From assembly GCA_050952085.1 (NCBI GenBank), contig JBMNKH010000003.1, forward strand, positions 38,626-102,625: a stretch of DNA of 64,000 nt, given 5' to 3'. The translations under genes were made by a program, and so were the position numbers. The DNA comes from Bacillota bacterium (GTDB taxonomy: Bacteria; Bacillota; Sulfobacillia; Fermentithermobacillales; Fermentithermobacillaceae). The notes under the pieces are model-generated. The model did no database searches, was not told the DNA's origin, and saw only the letters and a list, made by a program, of their open reading frames with translations. Positions 17,071 through 62,805 of the stretch are shown here, one piece after another (position 1 is the first letter of the stretch; every line of letters starts with the position of its first letter).

Positions 17071-17088
17071 GCAACAAAAATTATTGAG

Positions 17089-17787: not shown

Positions 17788-17901
17788 AGCACCATTTTTG
17801 TTACCATCATTGCAAAACCTTTGTATATTATATACTAATGTAACATATATTTTTTCGGCTTATTGTAGATGATATAGTAGTAAGTTATAAGCATAAATAA
17901 G

Positions 17902-17945
17902 AAGCCCTCAAACCCTTGTGTTTACGGGGGTTACAGGGCTTTTTC
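17902..17945. terminator. Hairpin terminator at the island edge
   Basis: AAGCCCT..AACCC...GGGTT..AGGGCTT followed by a T run, between convergent genes. Confidence 0.55.
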
Positions 17946-17986
17946 ATTCCACATTTTAGCAGGATTTTGTGTGCTATTAAGTGCGC

Positions 17987-41026: not shown

Positions 41027-41035
41027 TGTTAGGGG

Positions 41036-41662
41036 GTGCATGATTTGAACACGCTCATCGCGATCGTCGGCCTGGTAGCGGGCGTTCCCATATTACTGTC
41101 ATCATTTGCTGAAATACCTGTCATCAGCGACCTGGCTCAAGAGTTCCAACGATGGGGAATCATTCTGGCCGGGTTTTCAACCTTTCTTGGTGTACTCAAC
41201 CTTACCTTCGTCAATGCAAATGCTCTGCGTCGCAGAAAGCAGACAGGTCAAGTCATAGAGCCTGTCGTAGTTCTCGTCATGTTGTGGGGCCTTGTTCTTA
41301 CCGGAGTGTTTTTCGGGCAAACGCACCCTGCGTACGATTTTGTGTTTGAGAATGTGCTCAAGCCCCTTAGCGCATCAGGCTTCTCCATGTTGGCGTTTTT
41401 CATTGCTTCCGCTGCTTATAGAGCATTTCGTGTGAGAAACGTGGATGCAGCCATTCTATTGGTATGTGGATGTCTGGTTATGCTGGCCAATATTCCTTTC
41501 GGTGAACTGATCTGGAGCGATCTCCCGGTTGTGTCCGATTGGATCATGCGCATCATCAACGGGTCTGCGATGAAAGGTATTGTAATCGGCGGGGCAATAG
41601 GAGCGATTGCAACGGCGTTGAAGGTGCTCGTTGGAGTCGAACGTTCACACTTGCGCGGCTGA
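41036..41662 (+). CDS. Uncharacterised multi-TM protein (cassette 1, subunit B)
   Basis: FFIASAAYRAFRVRN, GVERSHL; paralog at 55477. Confidence 0.85.
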   Translation: MHDLNTLIAIVGLVAGVPILLSSFAEIPVISDLAQEFQRWGIILAGFSTFLGVLNLTFVNANALRRRKQTGQVIEPVVVLVMLWGLVLTGVFFGQTHPAYDFVFENVLKPLSASGFSMLAFFIASAAYRAFRVRNVDAAILLVCGCLVMLANIPFGELIWSDLPVVSDWIMRIINGSAMKGIVIGGAIGAIATALKVLVGVERSHLRG

Positions 41663-41686
41663 GATTACGCAAAGGAGAGGTGAAAC

Positions 41687-42515
41687 ATGTCATTCTTTGA
41701 AAGACTTCAGTCGATCCCGCGTATTACAATATACGTCTTGGTCGTAATCGTGCTGTCAATACCACTCATATTTCCGATTAGTCTTCCCTTACAGGTAGTA
41801 CCCATGACTCAAGCCGTGTATGATGCGATTGAAGCCCTCGAGCCGGGTTCGATATTCATGTTGTCCACTGACTGGGAAGCATCTACCGAGGCTGAGTCGG
41901 GACCCCAGACAGAGGCCATTGTAAGACACGTCTTGGCAAGAGACCTGAAGCTAATCATTGTGGGACTCTGGCCTCAGGGCAACTCGGCTACGCAGCAGAT
42001 TGTTGAGCGAATAGCTTCCGAAATGGGAAAAACTTACGGCGTAGACTGGGTCAACCTGGGGTACAAGCCGGGCGGCGAAGTTGTTCTAGCGTCTTTGGCT
42101 GCTAACCTGCGGGAACTCTACAGTTCAGACGTTAGGGGGACCCCGCTGGACCAGCTTGAGATATGCAAAGGACTCACCAGCGCTAAAGATGTGGACTTGG
42201 TTTGCTCGGTTTCTTGGGGCGACCCGGGCCATCTCACATGGGTAAAAATGGTTCAGACTCAGGTGGGGGTTCCGGTGGTGGCCGCGGTAACTGCAGTGTC
42301 TCTTCCGGGTTGTGCACCCTACCTCCAGTCGGGCCAGCTCTTGGGTGTAGTAGGTGGCCTGGGCGGAGCAGCCCAATATGAGAAGCTTGTGGGCTATGCC
42401 GGAAAGGCCGCCGCCGGAATGGGCGCGCAGAGCTTTCGGCCACATATTGGTTCTAACCCTGGTTGTGCTGGGCAACATCGGATATCTTGCCACCAGAAAG
42501 TCGAAGGAGGGTTAA
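41687..42515 (+). CDS. Uncharacterised protein with two TM anchors and a soluble domain (cassette 1, subunit C); 1-bp frameshift near 42435
   Basis: VNLGY.PGGE, DVRG, SGQ, GG..GAAQYE; removing one T restores AQSFGHILVLTLVVLGNIGY, matching the paralog. Confidence 0.82.
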
Positions 42516-42518
42516 ACT

Positions 42519-43112
42519 ATGAAATTGGGAATCACTGTTGCAGCCCTTCTTAACCTTGGTTTGTGGAGCTTCCTCATAGGCGATAACCGGGTGTTCAGGT
42601 TGGTTCAGAGCCTCTATGTGGGTGCTGCGGTAGCCCATACATTTGTACTGGCTTACAGAAACACCCTCATACCCAACCTTTGGCAACCCTTTACGGAAGG
42701 CAAATACGTATTGGTTATTCCCATGGTGCTGGGCCTGGCCCTGTTTACCAGGGTGTCCAAGAAATACTCTCATATTTCCAAGATACCCATGACCTTTATC
42801 GTGGGCGTCGGAGCTGCCCTGGCTATCCGCGGTGCCCTGTTGTCTGACTTGGCCACCCAGGTTGCGTCGGTCATGGTATCTTTGAACACCGTAGATAACA
42901 TCGTCATGCTGATAGGAACTCTATGCACACTCATCTATTTCACCTTTACGATCAAGCCGACACCCGTGACCGGCACCATGTCTTACATCGGCAGGTACTT
43001 CATGATGGCGGCCTTCGGAGCTGCATTCGGAAATACGGTCATGGCCAGGATGTCCCTGCTCATAGGCAGACTTCAGTTCCTGTGGGGCGATTGGCTGGGC
43101 ATCATCAAGTAG
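42519..43112 (+). CDS. Uncharacterised multi-TM protein (cassette 1, subunit D)
   Basis: DNRVFR..Q...VG, GRYFMMAAFGAAFGN.V..R, GDWLGI; paralog at 57014. Confidence 0.85.
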   Translation: MKLGITVAALLNLGLWSFLIGDNRVFRLVQSLYVGAAVAHTFVLAYRNTLIPNLWQPFTEGKYVLVIPMVLGLALFTRVSKKYSHISKIPMTFIVGVGAALAIRGALLSDLATQVASVMVSLNTVDNIVMLIGTLCTLIYFTFTIKPTPVTGTMSYIGRYFMMAAFGAAFGNTVMARMSLLIGRLQFLWGDWLGIIK

Positions 43113-43131: not shown

Positions 43132-44289
43132 ATGTCAAGAAGAGACGAGTGGCGGAAGAAGGCTCTGGCCTCCATCGATGCCGCGAGGGAAGACCTATTG
43201 GCGATTTCCCATGACATCTTCGAGTACGCAGAGCTTGCATTTGAGGAATTCCGTTCAGCGGAAAGGCTCCGGAGTTTCCTCAGAGAGCGGGGCTTCAGGA
43301 TCAGCGATGTTGAGGGATTGCCCACGGCGTTCATAGCTGAGAAGGGGACAGGATCGCCGGTAGTGGCTTTCATGGCTGAGTACGATGCCCTTCCGGAAAT
43401 AGGGCATGCCTGCGGGCACAACATTATAGCTGCGGCCGCCGTAGGAGCAGGCTTAGGTGTTGCTTCGTTCATCGAGGAGTCCGGCGGCACTGTCAGGGTA
43501 ATCGGCACTCCTGCCGAGGAGGGCGGAGGCGGGAAGATTATCATGGTAGACAAAGGCGTGTTCGACGATGTGGATGCTGCCATGATAGTGCATCCGTCGG
43601 GAGCCTACATGGCAGACGACCATTCCTATGCCATTCAGGGCTTTGACATCCAGTTCATAGGCAAAGCGGCTCATGCGGCCTCCGGCCCTCAGCACGGCAT
43701 AAATGCACTTGATGCGGCCGTGGAATTTCTCGTCAGCCTGAATGCTTTCCGCGAGCACATGACAGATGACGGCCGGATTCACGCCATCATCACCCACGGG
43801 GGCAGTGCGGTCAACGTAATCCCTGAACGCAGTGAGCTAAAGGTTGCAGTGAGAGCTACCACTAAGGAATATCTGGATGAGCTTATCCAGCAGGTCGAGC
43901 GCAAGGTCAAGGGTGCTTCGATCTCCGCGGGGTGTCAGTATTCCATAAAGCCTCGAGGGCTCCTTTGCAGGGAGATTAACGTGAACCGCGAGCTCTCAAG
44001 GTTGTTTGAAGAAAACTTCAAGTCCCTGGGGATACCCGTTGCTCCCAGAGGGGATTCCAAGGGCTCTACGGATGTCGGCAATGTGAGCCATGTTGTTCCC
44101 ACTATCCAAGCGTATGTGGGAATCGGCGCCGATGTTTGCCACACCGTCGAGTTCCGGGAGGCCAGCATATCTCAGAAGGGAGATGAGGCGGTCATCGATG
44201 GCGCCAAGGTGATGGCGCTGACCGCGGCGGATATCCTCTCAGATGAAACGGTGCTTGAAAGGATGCGCTCGTCGTTTAGGGGTGAGTGA
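43132..44289 (+). CDS. M20 family amidohydrolase (ACY1L2/AbgB-like)
   Basis: EYDAL, HACGHN, GTPAEEGGGGK, G.NALDA, GSTDVGNVS. Confidence 0.93.
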   Translation: MSRRDEWRKKALASIDAAREDLLAISHDIFEYAELAFEEFRSAERLRSFLRERGFRISDVEGLPTAFIAEKGTGSPVVAFMAEYDALPEIGHACGHNIIAAAAVGAGLGVASFIEESGGTVRVIGTPAEEGGGGKIIMVDKGVFDDVDAAMIVHPSGAYMADDHSYAIQGFDIQFIGKAAHAASGPQHGINALDAAVEFLVSLNAFREHMTDDGRIHAIITHGGSAVNVIPERSELKVAVRATTKEYLDELIQQVERKVKGASISAGCQYSIKPRGLLCREINVNRELSRLFEENFKSLGIPVAPRGDSKGSTDVGNVSHVVPTIQAYVGIGADVCHTVEFREASISQKGDEAVIDGAKVMALTAADILSDETVLERMRSSFRGE

Positions 44290-44679
44290 ATCCAGTCGGA
44301 TGCATGGATTTGGCTTATGGCCGGTACGATGAGTGCCAGGGGGATGCCGGCTGTCGGAAATCGGATGCGGTCTGGGAGCCGTGCCGGCGAGCGAGGCTTC
44401 CGCCAGCGATGAGGCGGAACGTCTACGTTCTGGGCCCTGCCTGCACATACCAGGTCCGGCATGTGCGCCTTTTGCCAGCGATCAGGTGGAAGACTAGACT
44501 GGGATCAGATGAAGACTAAACCGGGCAGTCATACAGATACAGGCCTAGTGCAAGTAGCGGGGCACCCGGGCTTGTCAATGCCACCGGGTGCCCGGCGAAT
44601 GTTGAGGCATGGGCGAGTCTTGCTAAACATGCAGGTTCCTAAGACAGAGTTCTGAGATACATTTCTCAGACATAAGAGC

Positions 44680-44940
44680 AGAGGCTGTAGGAATGGATGC
44701 TGTAATCGTAGAGGCTGCAGGAGTGGGTAGTAGGGGATGCAGGCCTGGAGGATGCATGTGTAGAGTGATACAGGATGCAAGAATAGCGGATGCAGGAGCA
44801 GAGGACCCGGGAGTAGAGGCAAAACTAAAGGATGCGGGAGCAGAGGACCCAGGAGTAGAGGCAGCAGAGGGTGCGGGAGCAGAGCTCTCGCGCGTAGAGG
44901 CATAGGGCACAGGAGCAAAGGGCACAGAAGTATAGAGGAT
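44680..44940 (+). repeat. G/A-rich low-complexity tract with GATGCAGG repeats and a 42-bp-period duplication
   Basis: GGATGCRGGAGCAGAGGACCCRGGAGTAGAGGCA at 44788 and 44830. Confidence 0.75.
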
Positions 44941-45022
44941 GAAGTCTGGCCTCTGTTGAAAGATGTCACAGAGCCAGAACCCAAGGCTAAGCAACGGGAA
45001 TATGCCGTACGAGGTGATCTGC

Positions 45023-46663
45023 TTGTTGACTGTGCGGCGAGCACTCAAGATCGGCGGGTTGGCAAAATCGAGGCTTGTGGCAGGTCATCAGGGGCTTGAT
45101 AATGAGATCCACTCAGTTGACGTGATAGAAGTGCCCGACATCAGGGATTGGATCAAGCCAAACGAGCTGGCGGTGACTTCCGGTTTTGCGGTGAAAGACA
45201 GCAGGCAAGCACAGGAACGTCTGGTCAGAGACCTGGCGGAGAACAAGGCTGCTGCCCTGGCTGTCAAGACAGGTCGCTATCTCGGTGATACCATACCCGA
45301 AGTGATGATAGCTGCGGCCAATGAGGCCGGTTTTCCCCTCATCGAGGTTCCCGCCGGCATCCCGTATACCGAAATTACCTTGCCGATAATATCAGCCATC
45401 TTGAACGAACGTGCATACAGATTTCAGTATGAATCCTACATCCGGGGAATGCTGCAGAAATGCGTCATAGAGAACAGGGGAATCGAGTCCCTTGCCAATA
45501 CCATAGCAGAGATAGTCGGAAGCCCGACTTGCATAGTCTCTCATGACGGACGTTTACTTGCTTCTTGCGGAAAGCATCTTGAGCATCGGAACATCAAGGT
45601 CCTACTGGAGCAAAGCAGAAAACAGTCTGGCCCGGCTACCGATGGGAGTCTGCCGGGAACCTGGTTTGAGGATCTGCTTTGCGTACCTGCCTGTGGCAAA
45701 GGGGGTATCTTAGGGTACCTGATCGTCGACCGTTCCAAGCAAGGCCCCTTGGACGTGTTCGAGGAGACAGCTCTTAGGGAAGCGGTAACGGTAGTAGTGC
45801 TGGAATTGACCAAACATCGTATAGTCCAGGAGGCTGAAACAACCCTAGAGCGGAGGCTTCTCGAATACAGCTTGACCCACCTCCAAGCCGATTTGCTGTT
45901 GCCGGACATACGGGACTTACCCGGATTCGTCTTCAGAGACCCGTACGCGGCCATCCTGGTGAAGCCCAGACAGCATGTACGCTTGGCTGCGGACTGGGGA
46001 AGATTGCTGACGGCAAGAAAGTGCCTGGAACTGGTGAAATGCGCTGAAAGGCCCTCGGTGGGCAGTTGGTTGCCCGTGTTCGTTGACAGAGAACGAGACG
46101 AGGTGATCATGGTTTGGTCCGGAATAGGAACGCCCGACAGTGACATGATAAGCGACCAATGTGTAGCAGAACTCCAACGTCTGCAGAGATGCCTGTGTCG
46201 CAATGCCGGCATTGAGATACTGCTGGGTGTAAGTAGGATCCATGTGGGAATCGACAGTTATGCAAGTGCTGCTGACGAGGCCAGGAAGGCGGCACGGATT
46301 GGAGACTCCTGCATTTTCACAGAGGGAGTGATGCTGGCTCAGGATGCAGCCATATATGAGTTCATCGACAATATTGACAGGGACACACAAGCACGATTTG
46401 CCGAGGACAATCTGAAACAACTCATAGGTCAGGACGGGAATCGTGAGCTTATCAAGACCCTGGCCGTCTTCTTGTACTGCGGCGGCCAGATTTCCCAGGC
46501 AGCCGAGAAACTGTTTATCCACAGAAATACACTCAACTATCGTTTGGACAAGATAAGTGCTCTCCTTGGTTGCGATGTGAGACATCCCAGGAACCGATCC
46601 AGGTTGGAGCTTGCGCTTGTTGCAGCTTGTCTTTCGGGCGTAATCCCGAGACAGGGCGATTGA
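45023..46663 (+). CDS. PucR/CdaR-family transcriptional regulator
   Basis: LTV..AL, VAG..GL, V.V.E.PD...W....EL..TSG; C-terminal HTH AAEKLFIHRNTL.YRL.KI; TTG after GAGGTGA. Confidence 0.93.
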   Translation: MLTVRRALKIGGLAKSRLVAGHQGLDNEIHSVDVIEVPDIRDWIKPNELAVTSGFAVKDSRQAQERLVRDLAENKAAALAVKTGRYLGDTIPEVMIAAANEAGFPLIEVPAGIPYTEITLPIISAILNERAYRFQYESYIRGMLQKCVIENRGIESLANTIAEIVGSPTCIVSHDGRLLASCGKHLEHRNIKVLLEQSRKQSGPATDGSLPGTWFEDLLCVPACGKGGILGYLIVDRSKQGPLDVFEETALREAVTVVVLELTKHRIVQEAETTLERRLLEYSLTHLQADLLLPDIRDLPGFVFRDPYAAILVKPRQHVRLAADWGRLLTARKCLELVKCAERPSVGSWLPVFVDRERDEVIMVWSGIGTPDSDMISDQCVAELQRLQRCLCRNAGIEILLGVSRIHVGIDSYASAADEARKAARIGDSCIFTEGVMLAQDAAIYEFIDNIDRDTQARFAEDNLKQLIGQDGNRELIKTLAVFLYCGGQISQAAEKLFIHRNTLNYRLDKISALLGCDVRHPRNRSRLELALVAACLSGVIPRQGD

Positions 46664-46666
46664 TGT

Positions 46667-46742
46667 TTGTGCAACCTAACGGCCTTGGCGGGCATTTCTT
46701 GTGCGTCATACAGATAAAGCTGACTTGCCTTTGATCGACAAT
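46667..46742 (+). promoter_or_regulatory. Putative PucR/CdaR-type tandem operator plus -10
   Basis: TTGTGC boxes at 46667 and 46699 (32 bp apart), GACAAT at 46737. Confidence 0.45.
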
Positions 46743-46764
46743 GTGTTGGAGGAGGGAGCGGGTG

Positions 46765-47424
46765 TTGAGGAAAAACGCGACAGCCAAGATCGGGATTATC
46801 AGGGTCTTGACCACCGATGACGTACATCTTCTGAACATGCATGGCACGCTGATAGAAGCGCTATTCCCCAATTTGGATGTCGTATCTCGCTGTATTCCGG
46901 ATCATCCTAAAGGGGTGTATGACTCGGAAACCGAGGCCAGTGCCGGACCGCTGGTGGTCCGGCTGGCACGGGAGTTTGAGGCCGAAGACTGTTCAGCAGT
47001 AATCATCAGCTGCGCGTCAGATCCGGGACTGGATATGGCAAGAAAAAACGTAGGTATTCCTGTGATTGGAGCGGGTAAAGCAGCGGCCCTTATGGGGAGG
47101 GCCTTTGGACGGAAAGTCGGTGTGCTTGGCATAGGTGGTTCCGCCCCCAAACGGATGGAGAAAATCCTCGGAGACCTGCTGGTAGGCTACGCCAAGCCAG
47201 AAGGTCTGGAGAATACCACCAACCTTCTGACGGCTGAGAGCCAAAGGGCCGTGTTGGATGCAGGCTTGAAGCTGAAGCAGGCAGGAGCGGAAGTAATAGT
47301 CCTTGCGTGCACTGGGCTCTCAACAGCCGGAAGTGCAGCGCCTTTATCAAAGGCCACAGGGTTAAGAGTGGTTGACGCTGTCCAAGCCGCGGGTTTTCTG
47401 GCATATTATGCCGTTACTTTCTAG
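46765..47424 (+). CDS. Asp/Glu/hydantoin racemase family protein
   Basis: IG.IRVLT, ISCASDPG and LACTG two-Cys motifs; start near 46762-46765 after GGAGG. Confidence 0.88.
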   Translation: MRKNATAKIGIIRVLTTDDVHLLNMHGTLIEALFPNLDVVSRCIPDHPKGVYDSETEASAGPLVVRLAREFEAEDCSAVIISCASDPGLDMARKNVGIPVIGAGKAAALMGRAFGRKVGVLGIGGSAPKRMEKILGDLLVGYAKPEGLENTTNLLTAESQRAVLDAGLKLKQAGAEVIVLACTGLSTAGSAAPLSKATGLRVVDAVQAAGFLAYYAVTF

Positions 47425-47439
47425 GCCTGTGTTCGGTCC

Positions 47440-47745
47440 GGCGCACAAATGCAAGCCCGAGAATGCACGTGGATGAGAATACAGACACATGGGAATGCAG
47501 GCTAATGAGGATGCAGGCCCGCGATAATGCAGACGCAAGAAACCAAGGTGCATGATTGTACAGGCACATAAGAATGGAAGTATAGAGCTTGCAGGTGAAC
47601 CGCAACGCAAGCGCACAGACTGCTGTCGTAGGAACGGATCAGCAAGGTAAGAGCATAAAGGAAGAAGCAAGAAGGAGAAAGCAAGCAGAAGAAAGCAAGA
47701 AGAAGAAAGCTAGAAGAAAGCAAGCAAGAGAAAGCTAGAAGGACA
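47440..47745 (+). repeat. Purine-rich low-complexity tract (ATGCA and GAAAGCAA repeats)
   Basis: 47661-47742 is almost entirely A/G with recurring AGAAAGC(A/T)A. Confidence 0.7.
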
Positions 47746-47781
47746 GGGCATGTTCATGCTGCAGATAGGGAGGGGAAATCC

Positions 47782-48729
47782 TTGAGCTTCAAAGCTACTC
47801 TGAAAGCACTTGACTTGCTTGACGACTCCCGTGTAACCGGCGGCCAGGTTGCTGAATATCTGCAATCACTGGGGCTGGAAAACGTGCGGACTGAAAGGGT
47901 TCACGGTGAGAAGGGGTTTACAGATTTCCTTCAGGTTGCCATCCCCGGAGCCCAAGGGAAACTGGCAGGAGGCAAGGCGCCCACCCTTGGGATAATCGGC
48001 AGGCTTGGAGGTATCGGTGCGCGTCCTGAGATGATCGGGCTTGTCTCTGACGGGGACGGGGCAGTGGCGGCACTTGCGAGTGCCATAAAGCTGGCAGTCA
48101 TGGCGCAGCGGGGCGATCGACTTCACGGAGACGTAATGATTTCTACTCATGTCTGCCCCCATGCCCCCACGCAACCCCACGATCCCGTGCCCTTCATGGG
48201 TTCTCCTGTGGACATGAACACCATGAACAAGTATGAAGTGTCCGGGGAAATGGACGCAATACTGTCAATCGATACCACAAAGGGAAACCGGGTGATCAAC
48301 CACAAGGGTTTTGCCATCTCGCCTACGGTAAAACAGGGGTACATACTGCGTGTGAGTGACGACCTCCTGGACATCATGAGCATTACCACCGGCAAGCTTC
48401 CTGTGGTGTTTCCTATAACCACTCAGGATATCACCCCGTACGGAAACGGCATATATCATCTAAACAGCATCCTTCAACCGTGTACGGTCACCGCTGCACC
48501 GGTGGTGGGAGTTGCGATTACAACCGAAACCGCCGTGCCGGGATGTGCCACCGGGGCAAGTCACGTAGTGGACATTGAACAAGCGGTCCGTTTCAGCATC
48601 GAAGTGGCCAAGCAGTTCGGAGTGGGCAAGTGCAAGTTCTGCGATGAAGCAGAGTTCCAAAGGCTGGTGGAGTTGTACGGGCCAATGACCGTGCTCCAAA
48701 CCCATGGTTCGATGGCCGAAGACCTGTAG
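47782..48729 (+). CDS. DUF1177 family protein (putative metallopeptidase-like)
   Basis: GRLGGIGARP..IGLVSDGDGA, H.CP.APT.PH.PVPFM, SIDTTKGNR, QDITPYGN..YH.NSI.QP. Confidence 0.85.
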   Translation: MSFKATLKALDLLDDSRVTGGQVAEYLQSLGLENVRTERVHGEKGFTDFLQVAIPGAQGKLAGGKAPTLGIIGRLGGIGARPEMIGLVSDGDGAVAALASAIKLAVMAQRGDRLHGDVMISTHVCPHAPTQPHDPVPFMGSPVDMNTMNKYEVSGEMDAILSIDTTKGNRVINHKGFAISPTVKQGYILRVSDDLLDIMSITTGKLPVVFPITTQDITPYGNGIYHLNSILQPCTVTAAPVVGVAITTETAVPGCATGASHVVDIEQAVRFSIEVAKQFGVGKCKFCDEAEFQRLVELYGPMTVLQTHGSMAEDL

Positions 48730-51754: not shown

Positions 51755-52654
51755 TTGAATACCGTTGCATCCCGAATGAAAACAGATAGATACCGAAGGG
51801 AGAATCCGTTCTTGTTCACAGACATTTCAAACATTACCTGTGGAGATGACCCGGTCATAATCGTTGAAGATCTGATAAAACACTTCCGCATAAGGCTCGA
51901 TGGCGATGATTTCCGGGAACGGGTGAGGCTGTTTTTCAGGCCTGAGTACCGCACGGTTAAGGCGCTGGATGGCGTCAGTTTCACAGTCCGTCGCGGCGAA
52001 TCTGTAGGCTACATTGGCCTCAACGGCGCAGGCAAGTCCACCACTATCAAGCTGCTTTGCGGCGTGCTGGTACCTACATCGGGAAGAGTGATTGTTGCGG
52101 GTATTGAGCCCCACCGTCACCGGACGCTGAACGCCCGGCGCATCGGACTCATGATGGGGCAGAGGACACAGCTGTTGTGGGATTTGCCCGTCAAAGAGAG
52201 CTTTACCCTGCTTGGGAAGATATATGACCTGGACCCTGAAACCTACAGGGCCAACAAGGACAGGCTTATCGACGCTCTGGACATAAGGTCACTCATGGAA
52301 ACGCCTGCCCGGATGCTTTCCCTCGGGCAAAGAACCCGCTGTGATCTGGCGTTGACCTTCTTGCATGATCCTGCCGTCGTGTATCTTGACGAACCAACCA
52401 TAGGGCTTGATGTATTCGCGCGGGAACGCATCAGGGAGTTTCTGCGCGCTGAAAAGGCCCGGGGCGTGACCATCTTCATGGCAAGCCACGACCTTGATGA
52501 CCTGGAAATGGTAGCAGACCGGGTACTCCTTATCCATCAAGGCAGAATCCTGTTTGACGGAACTCAAGCTGACCTGCAAGACATGTTTGGCGGGCAGTTA
52601 GGTTCGCTTGAAGACACAGTCAAGCGGTTCTACAGGGAGGAGGCACTGGGATGA
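51755..52654 (+). CDS. ABC-2 exporter ATP-binding protein; start uncertain
   Basis: GLNGAGKST, GQRTQL.WDLP, LSLGQR, LDEPTIGLD, SHD. Confidence 0.93.
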   Translation: MNTVASRMKTDRYRRENPFLFTDISNITCGDDPVIIVEDLIKHFRIRLDGDDFRERVRLFFRPEYRTVKALDGVSFTVRRGESVGYIGLNGAGKSTTIKLLCGVLVPTSGRVIVAGIEPHRHRTLNARRIGLMMGQRTQLLWDLPVKESFTLLGKIYDLDPETYRANKDRLIDALDIRSLMETPARMLSLGQRTRCDLALTFLHDPAVVYLDEPTIGLDVFARERIREFLRAEKARGVTIFMASHDLDDLEMVADRVLLIHQGRILFDGTQADLQDMFGGQLGSLEDTVKRFYREEALG

Positions 52655-53481
52655 AGCCCGTGACTAACTCAGAGACATACTTGAAACCCTTGAGATTGAG
52701 GAAGTACCTCCAGTACACCCGGGCAGAGTTTATGCGCGGCCTGAGGTACCGTGCTAACTACTGGGCGACATTGTGCAGCAGCGTGATAATGACGGTCATC
52801 CAGTGGTCCCTCTGGAGAGCAGTTTACATCAATACAACTTCGATTGCCGGTGTGAGTCTGCCGGCTATGATGGCCTATGTTCTCATTGGGAGGGTGATCT
52901 CAGGCTTTCTCGCAGAGCCTGCAAACCTCAATATTGGCCCGAGGGTCAGGAGCGGGGCCATAGTCCACGACCTTGTGAAACCGGCAGACCTGCACCCCCA
53001 GCTTATGTTCCAGACCTTGGGAGGCGCTTTGTTCCGTTTGGTTTCCACCGGGTTGCCTATATTCCTGGTGCTGCTTATCACAGGGGCTCTCCGGATGCCT
53101 GACCTGAAAACAGTAGCCCTCTTCATAGTCTCTTTGGTCATGAGCTATATCACATTATTCTCAACATCCTTCGTCTCGGGAGTGCTAACCTTCTACACCA
53201 AGAGCGGTGTGGGTGTGGAACACATGTATACCTTAGTTGAGCTGATGTCAGGACTATATGTCCCGCTTCAGTTTTTCCCGGGATGGCTAAGGAAGATAGC
53301 AGATTTGCTGCCTTTCAAAGCCATACACTACATCCCCATGGCCATCTGGAGTGGATTGACTGAACCTGGAGAGATCTTGTCTTCGTTGGCGTCACAACTC
53401 ATATGGACAGCGGCCATGGTAGTTCTGTGCCGCGCAATCTGGTCGGGTGCCGTAAAGCATCTGACTATCCAGGGAGGTTGA
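52651..53481 (+). CDS. ABC-2 family permease (DUF990-like)
   Basis: YRAN, RSG.I..DL.KP, SG.YVPL.FFP.W, LPF; ATGA overlap. Confidence 0.9.
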   Translation: MKPVTNSETYLKPLRLRKYLQYTRAEFMRGLRYRANYWATLCSSVIMTVIQWSLWRAVYINTTSIAGVSLPAMMAYVLIGRVISGFLAEPANLNIGPRVRSGAIVHDLVKPADLHPQLMFQTLGGALFRLVSTGLPIFLVLLITGALRMPDLKTVALFIVSLVMSYITLFSTSFVSGVLTFYTKSGVGVEHMYTLVELMSGLYVPLQFFPGWLRKIADLLPFKAIHYIPMAIWSGLTEPGEILSSLASQLIWTAAMVVLCRAIWSGAVKHLTIQGG

Positions 53482-53485
53482 CAGC

Positions 53486-54307
53486 ATGGGTTCTTACGAA
53501 CCGCCTCGTGGCATGGCCGCGGTATGGCGTTACGTCAAGTTATACTACTGGTACCTGCGGGCTAACTGGCTGTCCCTTATGGCTTACCCGGTGGAATTCA
53601 TCATAGTCAACCTTTCAGGCGTGGCGTATTCCCTTGGTTCAGTGGCGGCGGTCTGGGTGCTTTTCGCCCAAGTCAAAGCGATAGGCAGGTGGACTTACCC
53701 AGAGGTACTCCTTATTTACGGAATGAGTATATTCTCGCGGTCGCTTTTTCACCTGTTCTGGATAAACCTTATGACCCTTAGCTCCATGGTCAGAGATGGT
53801 ACCGTGGACAGGCTGCTGGTACGGCCCCTGAACCCACTGTTTCAGGTGGTCGCAGGCTATCTCGATAACGATGACTGGGGCGAGCTGGTAACAGCCATTA
53901 TGCTAGTATGGATATCCCTGGGTATGCTGGGTCAAAGAACAGTGTGGGCGATCTTGTGGGTGCTCCTGTCTGTGATATCTGGGTCGTTGATTTTCGCTTC
54001 TATGCACCTGGTTGGCAACGCCGTATCGTTTTTCACCATCGAAAGCAGCGGGTTTTCCAGGCTGGCCTGGACTATGGATGAATTCACCAGATACCCGGCG
54101 GACATATATGGCAAGACAACCAGGACCATTATTACATGGGTGCTGCCTGTTGCTTTTGCCAGCTTCTATCCGGCACAACTTGTTTTCGGCAACGAGCAGA
54201 TGAAGTGGATGGCCGTTGCTACACCTGTTATCGCCATCCTCACTTTTTCGGCCGCGTACATCTTCTGGACCGTGGCTATCAATCATTACCAGGGGGCCGG
54301 GAACTAA
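53486..54307 (+). CDS. ABC-2 family permease (DUF990-like)
   Basis: I..W...E, G..D..L.RP..P, YP.DIY, P.AF..FYPA, Y.GAG. Confidence 0.9.
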   Translation: MGSYEPPRGMAAVWRYVKLYYWYLRANWLSLMAYPVEFIIVNLSGVAYSLGSVAAVWVLFAQVKAIGRWTYPEVLLIYGMSIFSRSLFHLFWINLMTLSSMVRDGTVDRLLVRPLNPLFQVVAGYLDNDDWGELVTAIMLVWISLGMLGQRTVWAILWVLLSVISGSLIFASMHLVGNAVSFFTIESSGFSRLAWTMDEFTRYPADIYGKTTRTIITWVLPVAFASFYPAQLVFGNEQMKWMAVATPVIAILTFSAAYIFWTVAINHYQGAGN

Positions 54308-54648
54308 CCGGCCCCTGGCCTGCCGCCCCTGCTGTGTTTTGCCATGCATGGAATAGTGCCGGACATATTCACATAAGATTCCACAGCAGACTTGAGCAAA
54401 CTCGTGGTAATCTTAGCAGGAATACTCGGAATTATGTTGAATGAAAAACCCTTAACTTATTGCATGGTTATTCTGGATGAAGCAAATGTCTGCAAAGGCG
54501 TATTTTGGTTATTTTGGAAAGGGGGTGCTCATACACTCTTTCATCCAGATTCTATGCTGATGATGGGAGGACTTTAGATAAATAGCAAGGAAGTTGACGG
54601 TTTTTTTATTTCCTTAGTGTCAGAAGTGACCGGGAGGTGAATGTAAGA

Positions 54649-55431
54649 ATGACAATCGCTCCAGGAAATGTGTTTGGTTTCTGGATGTTAATCGCGATAT
54701 CCGCGTTGGTCATCTATACCATAAGAGCTTCAGAGAGGGGTAAGTTCAAAGTAACAATCAGGCCCATAGCCGGGCTCGAAGCAATAGAGGAATGTGTGGG
54801 CCGGGCTACCGAAATGGGAAGGCCGGTACACTTCTCGCCAGGGCTTGGTGACATAGTCACCACCTCAGCTCCTGATACCCTTGCAGCTCTTCAGATTCTC
54901 TCGTATGTGACTGACGTGGCTGCGAAGTACGATGCCAGGTTTCTCGTTACCATCCGTATGCCCAACGTATACCCGCTGGCTACAGAAACAGTACGCCAGG
55001 GTTATATTGCGGCGAACAAAGCGGACTCGTACAGGGACAACATGGTAAGGTACGTTTCAAGCGACCAAGACGCGTATGCTGCAGGCGTTATCGGCCTCTT
55101 CCACCAGGAACAGGTCGCATCCAGCATCTTGGCCGGCCTCTACATGGGAGAAGCACTGCTGCTTGCTGAATCAGCCGCCAGGCTTGGAATCATGCAGGTG
55201 GCAATCACTGCATCGGTTATGCAGGTACCCTTCTTCGTAGCTGCTTGTGACTACACCGTAATCGGTGAGGAACTGTACGCAGCCGGAGCTTACCTTACAA
55301 ACGACAAGGGACGTCTCGGAGGTATAGCAGGACAAGACTATATCAAACTGATCGTGATCGGCATCATCCTGATTGGCACTTTGATGACGTCTGCCGGCAG
55401 TAATGCAATTCAAAGTCTACTTACGATGTAG
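54649..55431 (+). CDS. DUF6754-like membrane protein (cassette 2, subunit A)
   Basis: IRPIAGLEAIEECVGRATEMGRPVHF, QVPFFVAACDYTVIGEELYAA; GGAGGTG SD. Confidence 0.87.
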   Translation: MTIAPGNVFGFWMLIAISALVIYTIRASERGKFKVTIRPIAGLEAIEECVGRATEMGRPVHFSPGLGDIVTTSAPDTLAALQILSYVTDVAAKYDARFLVTIRMPNVYPLATETVRQGYIAANKADSYRDNMVRYVSSDQDAYAAGVIGLFHQEQVASSILAGLYMGEALLLAESAARLGIMQVAITASVMQVPFFVAACDYTVIGEELYAAGAYLTNDKGRLGGIAGQDYIKLIVIGIILIGTLMTSAGSNAIQSLLTM

Positions 55432-55476
55432 TTGGTCGTAGGCAGAAGACTCGCTTAATGGAAAGAAGGTGTAATA

Positions 55477-56139
55477 ATGCGGAAAGAAGTGCCATTGCTA
55501 ATTACTTTCGTGGTTGCGCTGATTGTGATGCTAAGCCAGGTTACAACCGGAAATATCCCTGGGCTAGGCGTTGCCATGCCTGACCTTTTTGAACGATATA
55601 TCAGCCCTTGGATGACAGTGGTTTCCGCTTTTTCACTCTGCCTGGCCTCTGTCAACCTGATAGTGGTGCATTCAAGGAACATATCGCGGAAGCAGTCCGA
55701 GTGGATTTACAGCCTTATCCTGCTAGGCACACTGGTAATCTACGGTGCCTGGTGTACTTACATCCAGATAAATCCGGACAACACGGCTGCAGCTTCCAAC
55801 TACTCGCTGATATATAACTACATCCTGTCGCCGCTCATGACAGGGCAGTGGGCTTGCTTGGCGTTCTACGTGGCCTCTGCGTCTTACCGGGCCTTCAGGG
55901 CGAGAAACCTTGAGGCAACGGTACTGCTGGCGTCGGCAATATTGGTGATGCTGGGCGCTACTCCTGTAGGAGGGGTGATTTGGAGCAAGTTCCCGGTTAT
56001 ACAACGGTGGCTAATCGACATACCGAACATGACGGGCCAGCGTGCCCTGCTGATAGGCGCTGCAGTGGGAAGCTTTGTTGCATGCCTGCGCACAATGCTT
56101 GGAATCGAGCGGGGACATCTCGGCATCGGCGGTTCTTAA
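55477..56139 (+). CDS. Uncharacterised multi-TM protein (cassette 2, subunit B)
   Basis: FYVASASYRAFRARN, GIERGHL. Confidence 0.87.
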   Translation: MRKEVPLLITFVVALIVMLSQVTTGNIPGLGVAMPDLFERYISPWMTVVSAFSLCLASVNLIVVHSRNISRKQSEWIYSLILLGTLVIYGAWCTYIQINPDNTAAASNYSLIYNYILSPLMTGQWACLAFYVASASYRAFRARNLEATVLLASAILVMLGATPVGGVIWSKFPVIQRWLIDIPNMTGQRALLIGAAVGSFVACLRTMLGIERGHLGIGGS

Positions 56140-56161
56140 TGGGGAAGGAGGTATCCGGAGC

Positions 56162-56998
56162 ATGAGTCTTATGGAAAGACTACAGAACGTTGATTCTAGA
56201 ATCATATATGTACTTCTGCTTATAGCTCTATCTCTGCCTCTGCTCCGTCCTATCGGGATTCCGCTGCAGACTGATCCGATGGTCCGGGCTGTTTACGACA
56301 TAATAGAGGGACTTGACCCGGAAAAAGACAGGGTGTTGTTGTCCATGGACTACAGCCCTGGCGCGGGATTGGATGCAGAAGTGTCTCCTGTGGCGGTGGT
56401 AGAGCACTTAGCGGAACGTGGTATTAAGTGGGTGGCCATATCCTTCGGCACGACAGACGGCCCCATGATGACAAACAGGATAATCGCAGATCTTGAGGCA
56501 CGGGGCTATGAGTATGGTAAGGACTTTGCCAACCTGGGATACATGGCGGGCGAGGAAAACGCTGTCCGCCTCTTTGCCCTGGACTGCCTCAGTGTGCCCA
56601 CTGACGTAAGGGGCAACAGGACGGATCAGCTGCCCGTGATGCAAGGGATAAAGACAATCAAGGATTTTGCCTTTGTAATGCAGTTTTCAATGGGTACACC
56701 TGAAATGTGGATCCGTCAGGTAGTAGACCCCATGGGGATAAAATTCGCTACGGGAACGGTTACAGTATCTGTCCCGTCTATCGTGCCCTATTTCAACTCG
56801 GGACAGGTGAAGGGCGTGATGGGAGGCGTATCTTCCGCAGCCCAGTATGAGCTTCTGTGCAACAAGCCGGGACGGGGCGCAGCCTTGATGGATGCCCAAT
56901 CCATGGGCCACTTGCTCATCATCCTGTTTATCGTTCTCGGCAATATCGGGTATTTCATGGTCAAGGACAAGAAAGATAACTTGGCTGCCGGGCAATAG
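56162..56998 (+). CDS. Uncharacterised protein with two TM anchors and a soluble domain (cassette 2, subunit C)
   Basis: MSLMERLQ, ANLGY.AGEE, DVRG, SGQ..G..GG..SAAQYE, AQSMGH..GNIGY; AAGGAGGT SD. Confidence 0.87.
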   Translation: MSLMERLQNVDSRIIYVLLLIALSLPLLRPIGIPLQTDPMVRAVYDIIEGLDPEKDRVLLSMDYSPGAGLDAEVSPVAVVEHLAERGIKWVAISFGTTDGPMMTNRIIADLEARGYEYGKDFANLGYMAGEENAVRLFALDCLSVPTDVRGNRTDQLPVMQGIKTIKDFAFVMQFSMGTPEMWIRQVVDPMGIKFATGTVTVSVPSIVPYFNSGQVKGVMGGVSSAAQYELLCNKPGRGAALMDAQSMGHLLIILFIVLGNIGYFMVKDKKDNLAAGQ

Positions 56999-57013
56999 CT
57001 GGGAGGTGAAAAG

Positions 57014-57637
57014 ATGCAGATTTCAACGAATATTTGGCAATGGATCTCTGTGATTTGTATATTCGGCATGTGGTCACTGCCACTGTACAAAGACAATCCC
57101 TTTTACCGGGTATGCCAGAACGTATTTGTTGGCTCGTGTGCGGGTCACGCTATCGGAATCGCTATCGGAAATATTGTGAACTACGGTTTCGAGCCCTTGT
57201 TTACCCAGAGCAAGATAGACCTCCTGATTCCGGTAATCTTAGGGCTTATGCTGTATACCCGCTTCTTCCCGGGAGTTGCCTGGTTGAGCCGTTGGCCTGT
57301 TGCTTTTCTGGTAGGTGTTGGCGTGGGGCAGACTATCTACGCCTCTTTGAGGTCACAGGTGATCAACCAGTCAATAGCAGCTATGACTAAGTTCCCCCAG
57401 CCGACCGTGGGAGCTACGATTAACGGGCTGGTATCCCTTATAGGATTGTTATCCATTCTCACTTACTTCCTTTTCACCGTCCCGCAGTCGGGTGTTGTCA
57501 GAGGTATGTCCAAGCTGGGCCGGTGGATGATGATGGTGACCTTCGGGGTCGGGTTCGGCAACGTTGTATCAGGACGTCTGTCTGTACTCTTGGGCGAGCT
57601 GCTCAAGATATTCGGCGACTGGTTGGGTATGATCTAG
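57014..57637 (+). CDS. Uncharacterised multi-TM protein (cassette 2, subunit D)
   Basis: DNPFYR..Q...VG, GRWMMMVTFG..FGN.V..R, GDWLGMI. Confidence 0.87.
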   Translation: MQISTNIWQWISVICIFGMWSLPLYKDNPFYRVCQNVFVGSCAGHAIGIAIGNIVNYGFEPLFTQSKIDLLIPVILGLMLYTRFFPGVAWLSRWPVAFLVGVGVGQTIYASLRSQVINQSIAAMTKFPQPTVGATINGLVSLIGLLSILTYFLFTVPQSGVVRGMSKLGRWMMMVTFGVGFGNVVSGRLSVLLGELLKIFGDWLGMI

Positions 57638-57665
57638 CGCCGAGGCAGTAACAGTAGTCTAGAAC

Positions 57666-57705
57666 AATAGCGGCATTCTTGAAAGAAGAAGAGTGCCGCT
57701 ATTTT
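57666..57705 (+). terminator. Rho-independent terminator of cassette 2
   Basis: AATAGCGGCATTCTT-loop-AAGAGTGCCGCTATT followed by T residues. Confidence 0.8.
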
Positions 57706-57793: not shown

Positions 57794-59140
57794 TCATGCA
57801 AACACTAGATACACACCTGAAAACAGCAAGGCGTTAAGCACTAGACGGACGGCTTTATTCACCCTGAATTGCTTGGTGAGCAAAAGCAGATCTGCCGCAT
57901 ACACAAGAGATGCGGACGCAAACAGGGCTAACATACCGGTTATGCCTAAGCCAAACAACAACCCGAGCACCGCGGATAGTGCTGCATAACCAATAAGAGG
58001 AAACGGCAGATATCCAAGGAGTATCTTGTTAGTGTCAAAGGGGATGTGGAGTCCCAGTGAAGATTTTTGCAGCACTGTGTTGGCCTGTCTTAGCCAGATT
58101 TCTTTCAAATTGGCGTACACTGTTGCTATCAAGAAAACCGCGATGATTTTGGAGAATTCGGGAAATTCGGCGGAGTTCCAGGATAGCCACGTTGTCATGG
58201 TAATGGTGTATGCAAACACAAGCAAGGCCAACAGCGTAATCCAGATTGCTTTTCCCTGCCTGGCGGTCTCTATAATGTTCTTGTAAACAAGCACATTGTG
58301 TTTTTCCGGGTGAAAATGATGCAGCATGATCTTGTACTCTTGTTTCAGACTATGCTTCTTAGCTATTTGCACCATCTTAGCCCAGTTGTTCTGGCTCTGT
58401 GCGGCCATAGTTTCATCAATAAAGCGCAAATACGTTTCATATTTTGAGTAGTCCAGTTGAAACTTGTGTTTCAGGTGGCGTAACACAACGACAAGTTCAA
58501 CGGCAAGCAGTGCAATAGCCACATTAGCCACATATGCCTTGATGAGCTCTCTGAAGACTCCTTCGGAGACGCCTCCGGCATGAGGTCCCGCTGTAATACT
58601 GTATCCTCCTGCAAACAGGCACAGCGCGTTCAGACACATCAGCCCGAGCAACCGGGTCTTGGATCCTGAGGTATGGTAGGATATCCACGCAATCAATTCG
58701 CTAAGCAGTAAGTATGCAAACAGCAGGATGCAGGTTGTGGAGAAGAGAAGGTTAACGGTTCTGCCGGAGATCATGTATGCAGAAATCCCTGCTATAGCTA
58801 AGCTTCTGAACACAAGACGCAGGTACTGCCACATCATGATTATCTTGAAGTAGCCGGTGTAAAACGTATGGTGCAGGGTAGCGGCGTTAATTAGTATCAC
58901 CGGTGATTTCATGAGAAATGCCCTGTAGAAACTAACAGCAGCAAACACGGCCATTATGTAGAGAACATACTTGTCTTCAAGGGGTCTGCCTGGTTCCAGG
59001 TAGGCGGCAATGCGTATGGCCTGAGACAATACAAACGCTCCAGCCAGAAGCAATCCAAGGAATCCGGCGAGGTTGTGCCTGATTATACCCTTGGCCAACC
59101 GGAACTTGTTCTTAAATATGTAGCCGAAGATCTTATTCAT
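57794..59140 (-). CDS. ABC exporter permease (EcsB-like, tentative)
   Basis: About 10 TM segments; ATGA-coupled to the ATPase. Confidence 0.75.
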   Translation of the reverse strand: MNKIFGYIFKNKFRLAKGIIRHNLAGFLGLLLAGAFVLSQAIRIAAYLEPGRPLEDKYVLYIMAVFAAVSFYRAFLMKSPVILINAATLHHTFYTGYFKIIMMWQYLRLVFRSLAIAGISAYMISGRTVNLLFSTTCILLFAYLLLSELIAWISYHTSGSKTRLLGLMCLNALCLFAGGYSITAGPHAGGVSEGVFRELIKAYVANVAIALLAVELVVVLRHLKHKFQLDYSKYETYLRFIDETMAAQSQNNWAKMVQIAKKHSLKQEYKIMLHHFHPEKHNVLVYKNIIETARQGKAIWITLLALLVFAYTITMTTWLSWNSAEFPEFSKIIAVFLIATVYANLKEIWLRQANTVLQKSSLGLHIPFDTNKILLGYLPFPLIGYAALSAVLGLLFGLGITGMLALFASASLVYAADLLLLTKQFRVNKAVRLVLNALLFSGVYLVFA

Positions 59141-59853
59141 AGCGACTCAACCAGCTTGAGATATATGTTTTCCATTGAACTATCACGAGGCAAGCCAGCG
59201 TATGATGCCAGCTCACTTTGTGCGCCTGTGGCCAGCACCCTTCCTTTGTGGAGTATGATGTACTTATCGCATAACTTCTCAACCATATCCAGCAAGTGTG
59301 TGGAGAGAAGCACCAACTTGTTGTCTTTCTTGTGTTGTAACATTGTTTCCTTCAGGAGGCGGATTTGTTTCGGGTCCAGCCCGGTAAAAGGTTCGTCGGC
59401 GATGAGAATCCTGTAGGCTCTCATAAGAGCCATGGCTATCATGAGCTTCTGCTTAGTGCCTCTGGAAAGGGCAGAAGGAACTTTGTTAATGTGTTCTTCC
59501 AGTTCGAAATGGGCGACTATTGCGGGTATGCTTTGAGTGTTTTCGGGATATAGGGCCTTGATGAAATGCAGGTGCTCTATGACCGTCAGTTCTTCATAGA
59601 ATACAGGGATTTCCGGGATGTACGACACCGGGAAATCCTCATTACTTATTTCAGACACACGAGTGCCGTCAATGGTTATTTGTCCTTGCTGCGGCTTCAG
59701 GTGTCTGGTGATGTTCTTTATCATGGTTGACTTTCCGGCGCCGTTTTCGCCTATCAGACCAACGATTTGGCCGGCTTGCGCGCAAAACGACACATCCTGC
59801 AAAGCCCTTACGCTGCCATAACTAAACGACACACCCTTGACTTGCAGTAACAT
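59137..59853 (-). CDS. ABC transporter ATP-binding protein (EcsA-like)
   Basis: GENGAGKST, FYEELTV.EH, LSRGTKQK, DEPFTGLDP, STH. Confidence 0.93.
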   Translation of the reverse strand: MLLQVKGVSFSYGSVRALQDVSFCAQAGQIVGLIGENGAGKSTMIKNITRHLKPQQGQITIDGTRVSEISNEDFPVSYIPEIPVFYEELTVIEHLHFIKALYPENTQSIPAIVAHFELEEHINKVPSALSRGTKQKLMIAMALMRAYRILIADEPFTGLDPKQIRLLKETMLQHKKDNKLVLLSTHLLDMVEKLCDKYIILHKGRVLATGAQSELASYAGLPRDSSMENIYLKLVESL

Positions 59854-61944: not shown

Positions 61945-62805
61945 ATGGGAGTTGCTTTCAAGGTGGAAGACTTGCGTTTTAGGTATCCATCATCCAAAGA
62001 GGACACTATCAAAGGAATAACTTTTGATGTCCTGGAAGGCGAAGTATTCGGGCTTCTGGGTCCCTCGGGCGCAGGGAAGTCCACAACCCAGAAAATACTG
62101 ATAAAGCTGCTTGATGACTATACGGGCAGTATCGAATATTTCGGCAAAAACCTCAAGTCCCTGGACAACTCATTTTATGAGGAGATCGGTGTCGGGTTCG
62201 AAGTTCCCGTGCATTTCTCGAAATTGACCGCTTTGGAGAACATGAAGTTTTTCTCAGGGTTTTACAGGCAAACCGTAGATATTCAAGGACTGATGGAAAG
62301 GGTCGGACTTTGGGAGTATCGTGATGTCAAGGTAGGCGAGTATTCCAAAGGTATGAAGGTGCGCCTGAACTTCGTTCGCGCCCTGCTCAACAAGCCGCGG
62401 GTTCTTTTCCTTGACGAGGTGACAAACGGGGTTGATCCAAAGAACGCCAGGATAATCAAGGACATGATAGCCGAGTTCAGGGCTAAGGGCGGCACTGTTT
62501 TCTTGACCACCCATCTGATGAATGATGTTGAGGAACTATGCGACCGGATTGCCTTTTGTGTAAACAGCAGGCTGGTGGAGATTTCAACCCCCAGGGACTT
62601 GAAGCTGCAATACGGCAAACGGGAAGTTAAGGTTGAGTACAGAAAAAACGGGGCCATTGCAAGCGCCGTGTTTCCCCTGGATGGGATAGGGTTCAACGAT
62701 GCATTCCAGAGATTACTGCAAACCGAGGAGATAGAGACCATCCACACTGGAGAATCGTCCATGGAGGAGATCTTCATCCTCGTGACAGGGGTTGAGGTGA
62801 AATGA
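61945..62805 (+). CDS. ABC exporter ATP-binding protein
   Basis: GPSGAGKSTTQK, YSKGM, FLDE.T.G.DP, TTH.M. Confidence 0.95.
   Translation: MGVAFKVEDLRFRYPSSKEDTIKGITFDVLEGEVFGLLGPSGAGKSTTQKILIKLLDDYTGSIEYFGKNLKSLDNSFYEEIGVGFEVPVHFSKLTALENMKFFSGFYRQTVDIQGLMERVGLWEYRDVKVGEYSKGMKVRLNFVRALLNKPRVLFLDEVTNGVDPKNARIIKDMIAEFRAKGGTVFLTTHLMNDVEELCDRIAFCVNSRLVEISTPRDLKLQYGKREVKVEYRKNGAIASAVFPLDGIGFNDAFQRLLQTEEIETIHTGESSMEEIFILVTGVEVK

Follow-up and report, generated by a model that had tools for sequence, protein, structure and literature searches.

Twelve diverged copies of a four-gene DUF6754 membrane-protein cassette in one Bacillota genome: candidate membrane parts of a multi-protein system

The stretch of DNA analyzed here (the window) comprises 64,000 nucleotides of contig JBMNKH010000003.1 (positions 38,626 to 102,625 of the forward strand) from assembly GCA_050952085.1, which represents a Bacillota bacterium of the family Fermentithermobacillaceae. 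It contains a compact set of four genes, A2, B2, C2, and D2, called cassette 2, and, upstream of it, a similar set, cassette 1 (A1 to D1). The original prediction, made without database searches, described cassette 2 as a complete four-gene operon with its own Shine-Dalgarno sites and a strong terminator. This is confirmed by four open reading frames (ORFs), a GGAGG-type ribosome site ahead of every one of them, and a terminator hairpin (Table 1). The ribosome site of A2, GGGAGGTG, is located at 54632-54639. Of the two possible start codons of A2, the ATG is probably the genuine one rather than the upstream in-frame GTG, as the orthologs point to it, which backs the start chosen earlier. Conservation of the A2 leader across four orthologous loci was limited to the ribosome site, no Rfam family matched in the leader, and no riboswitch was found in the window or at nine other cassette loci. 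The G+C content of cassette 2 is 0.518, compared to 0.515 for the window.

Table 1. Positions of cassette 2, its flanking signals, and cassette 1 in the window (aa, amino acids).
Feature	Positions	Strand	Remarks
Leader 5' of A2	54467-54648	+	left ends of RNA-library contigs (four runs) at 54467-54482
A2 (DUF6754 protein)	54649-55431	+	ORF; 260 aa from ATG 54649, 264 aa from in-frame GTG 54637
B2 (polytopic membrane protein)	55477-56139	+	ORF, 220 aa
C2 (bitopic protein)	56162-56998	+	ORF, 278 aa
D2 (polytopic membrane protein)	57014-57637	+	ORF, 207 aa
Intrinsic terminator	57666-57703	+	15-pair stem, 8-base loop, T-run
Cassette 1	40247-43112	+	
A1	40247-41026	+	
B1	41036-41662	+	
C1	41687-42553	+	
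D1	42519-43112	+	

The A2 protein belongs to the Pfam family DUF6754 (PF20539), which it matches with an E value of 1.9e-78 and 263.6 bits over positions 14-255 of 257; A1 reaches 256.9 bits, and the cut-off is 27. This family is catalogued as a DUF only, and the three other proteins are without any family model: neither Pfam nor NCBIfam families matched B, C, or D of the two window copies, and the same was true for 16 members each of the B and D families. According to the hydrophobicity profiles, A and C have one membrane helix at each end. In A, the stretch of about 200 amino acids between these helices is predicted to be a Rossmann-like domain in the cytoplasm. C2 is predicted to be bitopic as well, its termini both lying in the cytoplasm and its Rossmann-like alpha/beta domain, likewise of about 200 amino acids, outside the cell. 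These opposite orientations are based on the positive-inside rule. The domain of A should be cytoplasmic because the mean number of lysines and arginines is 4.6 just after helix 1 versus 0.9 before it (15 sequences), and the domain of C should be extracellular because these residues are concentrated at the termini (2.9 and 3.5, versus 1.1 and 0.9 on the domain side; 35 sequences). AlphaFold2 models of A2 and C2, built from 15 and 35 sequences, were confident, with predicted local distance difference test (pLDDT) values of 89.4 and 89.8, respectively; in both, a domain of about 200 residues, in which strands and helices alternate, is enclosed between two helices. The domain of A contains the invariant motif E-A-x-G-R-A-x-E-M-G-R-P-V-H-F. 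B2 has at least five hydrophobic helices and the conserved motif F-Y-x-A-S-A-x-Y-R-A-F-R, and D2 has at least three to four hydrophobic helices and the motifs F-G-x-x-F-G-N-x-V and G-D-W-L-G.

Fold searches with VIA-align returned generic Rossmann-like proteins for both soluble domains. The best hit of A2 was Sir2 (Z 10.5, root-mean-square deviation (rmsd) 3.7, 146 residues), and that of C2 was 1kjn_B (Z 9.5, rmsd 3.7, 139 residues), followed by RCK/KTN and short-chain dehydrogenase/reductase (SDR) proteins. In Foldseek searches of the PDB, the best match of C had an E value of 9.6e-4 at a template-modeling (TM) score of 0.25, and A had no match at E<=1e-3. With sequence profiles against the PDB, no match was found for B and only a chance match for A (E 0.6); the sole match of D is discussed below. 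An internal duplication of the type 2+2, in which A would correspond to C and B to D, was considered and rejected, as it has no sequence support (hhalign probabilities of 1.5% for A versus C and 0.5% for B versus D). In the Protein Atlas, B and D fall into unnamed clusters, for which no structure was found. Among 1.84 billion proteins, the B family has 3114 representatives of 50%-identity clusters at E<=1e-3. In six of its members (P0133, P0140, P0141, P0190, P0219, and P0269; 270-620 amino acids) the profile match is split into two stretches, and these proteins carry an inserted or added domain.

The four proteins of cassette 2 are clearly related to those of cassette 1. BLASTP alignments over nearly the full length gave 44% identity for A (E 2e-68), 33% for B (E 1e-36), 38% for C (E 2e-37), and 37% for D (E 4e-40), and all motifs that had been read by eye as common to the two copies recur in them. 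At the DNA level, just two stretches of 56-68 bp with 72-73% identity can be recognized. Therefore, the paralogy is old, as had been supposed from the lack of near-identical DNA. The C1 gene exhibits a frame change near 42437, and its C-terminal membrane helix and stop codon (42514-42516) are in the +1 frame; the C1 protein as assembled would therefore lose its second anchor. Possible causes of the frame change are an error in the assembly, a genuine defect, and programmed frameshifting. Downstream of cassette 1 (43132-48729) are genes for an M20 peptidase, a PucR-type regulator, an Asp/Glu/hydantoin racemase, and a DUF1177 protein, and upstream, on the opposite strand, are genes for an AstE/AspA-type deacylase and an M14 carboxypeptidase. 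This region looks like an island for the utilization of modified amino acids or peptides.

Cassette 2 had been regarded as the second copy of its kind. It is indeed diverged and complete, but the count has to be revised: the source genome (1.98 Mb in seven contigs, 96% complete) has 13 matches to PF20539, and tblastn searches with A2 to D2 revealed 12 complete cassettes. All 12 have four ORFs of similar lengths in the order A-B-C-D, separated by 0-70 bases or overlapping slightly. Together they occupy about 35 kb, or 1.8% of the 2-Mb genome, and this number ranks among the highest in the phylum sample described below, in which at most eight matches per genome are listed. When the 12 copies are compared pairwise, identity averages 40.7% in A, 33.7% in B, 34.1% in C, and 36.5% in D; A has 19 invariant columns, versus 7-11 in the other subunits. 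The genome also contains remnants of cassettes (C3:370572-371921, C3:377740-378105, and C4:12137-12400; loci L020 and L030). One intact cassette is immediately preceded by a split B gene and a truncated C gene and has a fragment of D on its downstream side, and an isolated fragment of A was also found. These remnants suggest a birth-and-death turnover of cassettes.

The four genes behave as one heritable unit that duplicates and co-diverges. Orthologs of cassette 2 are present in six other metagenome-assembled genomes, and the four with enough flanking sequence all retain A-B-C-D. The identities to A, B, C, and D of cassette 2 are 85, 87, 84, and 85% at locus L037, 78, 79, 77, and 75% at L038, 63, 65, 69, and 60% at L039, and 57, 64, 65, and 62% at L040. 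Trees were calculated for each subunit from the 12 paralogs, the four orthologs of cassette 2, and three single-copy cassettes. All four trees united cassette 2 with its orthologs (support 99-100), had the same inner split within this group (95-100), and recovered the single-copy trio (99-100), and the deep branching among the paralogs was star-like. Approximately unbiased (AU) tests were applied to pairings chosen post hoc, six planned per subunit, and covered A, B, and C. Eight tests were completed, and seven pairings were not rejected; nine further pairings were already present in the best tree. The lone rejection concerned the pair (c03,c05) in C (p 0.008), which had been picked after the trees had been seen, and the row still contained an out-of-frame tail. 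Deep congruence is thus neither shown nor refuted by the AU tests. The expected congruence of the subunit trees holds where there is signal, and there is no evidence of free mixing of subunits.

A further search with another paralog of C yielded 80 loci, and 73 of them have the order A-B-C-D, while the other seven are contig ends or overlaps produced by rough ORF calling. According to the record titles, the loci span Bacillota, Eiseniibacteriota, WOR-3-type phyla, Chloroflexota, a proteobacterium, and archaea. Cassette 2 resembles the common form in gene order, in protein sizes (about 260, 210, 280, and 200 amino acids), and in predicted topology.

Cassette 2 is present in RNA libraries, which is evidence of presence rather than proof of transcription. 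Parts of the window were contained in 21 runs, and in four metatranscriptome runs of biogas fermenters contigs cover the region from 54467/54482 to 57427/57640 with at least 99% identity. Single contigs span A into B, and no listed record bridges the C-D junction with 31 letters on both sides. The ABC-2 genes upstream (52500-54371) are hardly covered at all, and coverage of the genes downstream is low. The common left ends of the contigs in all four runs are at most a weak hint at a separate transcript start, as RNA libraries can contain DNA, genes cannot be ranked by contig depth, and one campaign may have produced all four runs.

The remnants and the frame change in C1 raise the question whether cassette 2 is itself a decaying, non-functional duplicate. 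This is very improbable: its four frames, its ribosome sites, and its terminator are intact, the residues invariant in the family have been retained, intact orthologs with 57-87% identity exist in four other species, and the cassette is represented in RNA libraries.

A first indication of function comes from the genomic neighborhood. At eight of the 12 cassettes of the source genome a hydrolase gene or another catabolic gene is adjacent on the same strand, and these genes differ. Cassette 1 is followed by the genes for the M20 peptidase and then the PucR regulator. One cassette has an Amidohydro_3 gene on each side, another is accompanied by an Amidohydro_3 gene and three DUF885 genes, and a third by an Amidohydro_3 gene. 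Further cassettes are located next to genes for a protein of the class-A beta-lactamase family, for a DPP-IV/S9 peptidase, and for GGT, an M20 peptidase, and a serine dehydratase. Cassette c10 is linked to hut genes, its neighbors encoding urocanase, histidine ammonia-lyase, an M20 peptidase, and formiminotransferase. In relatives within the Bacillota, the neighbors encode M20 peptidases (three times), DUF885 proteins (twice), Amidohydro_3 proteins (twice), URO-D-like proteins (three times), and a beta-eliminating lyase. This pattern is that of substrate-specific uptake systems and favors uptake modules of differing specificity. It is also in agreement with the proposal that the paralogs had expanded as transporters for different substrates. 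That the proteins form a transporter at all is something we infer.

Another finding is the link to a long GlmL-type ATPase. The source genome contains five genes with the GlmL domain PF13941. One of them (455 amino acids) lies inside an ornithine-fermentation operon and is of the ordinary Or-4 type. The other four encode proteins of 598-643 amino acids with a common C-terminal extension of about 130 amino acids. These long forms match PF13941 with 327-413 bits and thus share the domain with GlmL/MutL and Or-4 proteins, but stay below all three NCBIfam cut-offs for these families (NF040745, NF040744, TIGR01319), with 211-238 bits versus 475, 178-225 versus 600, and 141-181 versus 204. They differ from them also in the extension, in having a partner protein of their own, and in not being located beside any B12 enzyme. 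Their invariant motifs D-x-G-x-T-x-T-K, D-x-G-G-A-T-T-D, and G-x-G-G are presumably the phosphate-1, phosphate-2, and adenosine motifs of ASKHA proteins. Three of the four genes are followed by a partner gene (373-464 amino acids); these partners share 41-43% identity among themselves, with a weak RnfC_N match in two. A small protein, described below, has a single homolog in the source genome, encoded directly upstream of one long GlmL gene. The long GlmL protein, the partner, and the small protein are all without a membrane helix, and in the source genome none of their genes is near a cassette.

Two long GlmL-partner pairs are arranged in tandem at L027:5641-13288 (C4:479641-487288), with the homolog of the small protein between them; they are preceded by genes for peptidases C26 and S58 and a 229-amino-acid membrane protein of no known family. 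The remaining long GlmL gene lacks a partner gene and ends a MacB-like operon of one ABC_tran and two FtsX permease genes (L029:4347-9518, contig C3), which hints at other clients for this type of ATPase.

For an analysis of co-occurrence, the same 301 genomes of the phylum were searched for PF20539, PF13941, and the long-form extension. PF20539 was found in 26 genomes, the extension in 25, and both in 24, so the extension is present in 24 of the 26 DUF6754 genomes versus 1 of the 275 others, a comparison that overstates the evidence because related genomes are not independent. Of the two genomes with DUF6754 only, one is 78% complete and the other has only an 88-bit fragment; the single genome with the extension only has it in a frame of 469 amino acids, and the other member of its genus has both. 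Any match to PF13941 occurs in 118 of the 301 genomes, and therefore only the long form is specific to DUF6754 genomes.

Gene linkage provides evidence that is independent of the co-occurrence table. The long-form extension is encoded 3.6-3.9 kb downstream on the same strand of 8 of the 77 listed full-length DUF6754 genes, including those of six of the ten single-copy genomes, and at 14 of the 80 loci the ATPase gene is next door. In four genomes of three families, an operon has the order small protein (90-98 amino acids), A, B, C, D, long GlmL, partner, and in a second arrangement, found at nine of the 11 Eiseniibacteriota loci and at several others, the genes for the small protein, long GlmL, and the partner come, in this order, ahead of A, B, C, and D. 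There are thus two different linked gene orders in distant lineages. It had been claimed that exactly these four genes define the functional unit, and that an obligatory ATPase or another partner encoded together with most cassettes would speak against this. The claim stands insofar as A to D duplicate and co-diverge together. It is not supported insofar as the long GlmL ATPase shares their operon in several lineages and accompanies them at the level of the genome, while at the level of the single cassette it is encoded nearby only in the minority of cases just given.

The four genes are therefore probably not the whole machine. The interpretation that we favor, with a probability of about 0.5, is that there is an undescribed multi-protein system here, with cassette 2 as one of 12 diverged versions of its membrane part and with a shared soluble part encoded elsewhere, and that most of these copies serve uptake. 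B and D together would form the path through the membrane, the extracellular alpha/beta domain of C would be the likeliest site of substrate recognition, and the conserved Rossmann-like domain of A would be the coupling domain on the inside. The soluble part would consist of the long GlmL actin-fold (ASKHA) ATPase, the partner with its barrel-sandwich domain, and the protein of about 90 amino acids. This set is probably shared by the cassettes and may dock on A and drive the cycle with ATP. The finding that A is the most conserved subunit among the paralogs, both in identity and in invariant columns, fits a shared docking surface. Most copies in this organism may be uptake modules for amino-acid, peptide, or amide nutrients. 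We infer transport, its direction, the substrate, the coupling to ATP, and the contact between A and the ATPase alike.

Comparable arrangements are known from ECF and ABC systems. In group II ECF transporters one EcfAA'T module is common to many S components, and ABC importers of the MsiK/MsmK type share one ATPase. The logic would be alike, with many membrane modules scattered beside catabolic genes and few energizing modules elsewhere. However, there is no likeness in sequence or fold, the candidate motor has an actin fold (ASKHA) and is not an ABC ATPase, and the modules consist of four proteins, two of them bitopic, one with its Rossmann-like domain inside the cell and the other with it outside. 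No match to ABC_tran or BPD_transp was found in the eight cassette proteins of the window. In a more far-reaching version of the idea, the A-D modules would be interchangeable, each importing one nutrient, and would be driven by the shared ASKHA ATPase, which, assisted by its partner and by the small protein as an adaptor, would dock on A. Such a system would join ABC and ECF transporters as a third type of primary active importer, with 12 modules and four motors in this organism. We put it forward tentatively, as possible rather than probable.

Several observations weigh against the favored interpretation, in addition to the non-independence of the genomes mentioned above. No ATPase gene is nearby in 69 of the 77 listed cassettes of the phylum sample and at 66 of the 80 loci, and the numbers of cassettes and ATPases do not track (12 versus 4 in the source genome, 1 versus 4 in genome G081, and 2 versus 7 in genome G194), so the ATPase may have other clients or another role. 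Cassette 2 has no conserved neighbor. It and its four orthologs are free-standing four-gene blocks, with unrelated flanks at all four orthologous loci that point to no particular substrate. Likewise, the hut linkage of c10 is absent from L042, its ortholog with 59-66% identity and the one usable ortholog, as L041 is too short. C does not look like a binding protein with two lobes: a single alpha/beta domain is seen in the C2 model, the best binding-protein hits are single lobes (Z 8.2, 3rot_B), and a match to NMT1_2 is weak and below the cut-off (E 0.0014). No subunit matched a known transporter fold or family, and the fold matches of the domains of A and C are generically Rossmann-like only, with Z values of 9.5-10.5. 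The literature search found no publication on the DUF6754 cassette or the long GlmL ASKHA protein, with subscription journals mostly outside its reach.

The rarity of nearby ATPase genes, the uncoupled copy numbers, and the free-standing position of cassette 2 would all suit another explanation, namely, that A to D alone are a complete, ATPase-free multi-subunit secondary transporter with a logic like that of TRAP or TTT systems, and that the GlmL set regulates, matures, or assembles it or shares an ancestry of location with it. The characterized GlmL relatives of glutamate mutase operons are accessory proteins and not motors, which also suits it. TRAP (DctPQM) and TTT (TctABC) transporters are indeed similar to the cassette in their multi-subunit make-up, in the lack of an ATPase in the operon, and in having one extracytoplasmic component. 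However, C is predicted to be anchored in the membrane at both ends and has one lobe in its model, and the cassette co-occurs with an ATPase set. Pfam searches for TRAP and TTT families gave no match at E<=1 for the eight cassette proteins and none at E<=10 for 16 B and 16 D members, in line with a lack of likeness to the DctQ/DctM, TctA/B/C, and substrate-binding protein (SBP) families. The conserved cytoplasmic domain of A would have no obvious job in such a carrier, and the genome-level co-occurrence as well as the two linked gene orders in distant phyla argue for a closer tie to the ATPase. A self-contained secondary transporter is therefore, in our view, unlikely.

Other neighbors point away from nutrition, and they also count against the favored interpretation. 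The core single-copy operons adjoin PhoH or lipoate-ligase genes, and in bacteria of the WOR-3, Stahlii, and TA06 types, a longer A is directly preceded at 14 loci by the gene for a protein of about 420 amino acids that has SLBB domains and weak Poly_export matches (L081, L089, L092, L094-L096, L099, L100, L104, L105, L108-L110, and L120). At four Bacillota loci a gene for an OmpR-type regulator follows directly downstream. It might thus be that A to D, together with the GlmL set, are a complex acting in the envelope, in export, in sensing, or in cofactor handling, and that the catabolic neighbors in this lineage are secondary. The barrel-sandwich domain of the RnfC_N type in the partner would fit such a complex, as would the long GlmL gene at the end of the MacB-like ABC/FtsX operon. 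A transhydrogenase also comes to mind, as PntAB/NNT likewise has a Rossmann-like domain tethered to a membrane part. The domain of A can be aligned with transhydrogenase dIII (Z 9.5, rmsd 3.2, 139 residues) about as well as with its other top hits, many of them unrelated and tied with it, and the D profile touches residues 672-754 of the NNT membrane domain at E 0.25, its sole match in the PDB and at chance level. However, the domain order and the subunit set differ, none of 16 D members matches Pfam PNTB, and the fold matches are generic. Twelve diverged copies beside different hydrolase and catabolic gene sets are hard to explain for a housekeeping envelope machine and are typical of substrate-specific uptake. 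A non-transport complex thus appears rather unlikely.

If the favored interpretation of cassette 2 as a membrane module with a shared soluble part is true, these widespread membrane proteins make up an unstudied kind of machine for transport or another task at the membrane. To our knowledge, no actin-fold ATPase is known to energize solute transport. As the cassettes lie beside peptidase, amidohydrolase, and histidine-utilization genes, they are likely to be central to the feeding of uncultured amino-acid fermenters in anaerobic digesters, and the 12 diverged copies in one genome would represent a natural specificity series. New in this study are the highest copy number noted in the phylum sample, the series of catabolic neighbors, the test of co-divergence, the phylum-wide co-occurrence table, the two linked gene orders, and the small protein that travels with the ATPase.

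Some other features of the window were noted. Cassette 2 is surrounded by three separate gene sets for ABC-2-type exporters (51755-54307, 57794-59853, and 61945-62805), and none of them is part of the cassette. A tmRNA gene is located at 5462-5809 (150.8 bits). The G+C content of the region 16001-18000 is 0.39, compared to about 0.52 elsewhere, and this region may be foreign DNA.

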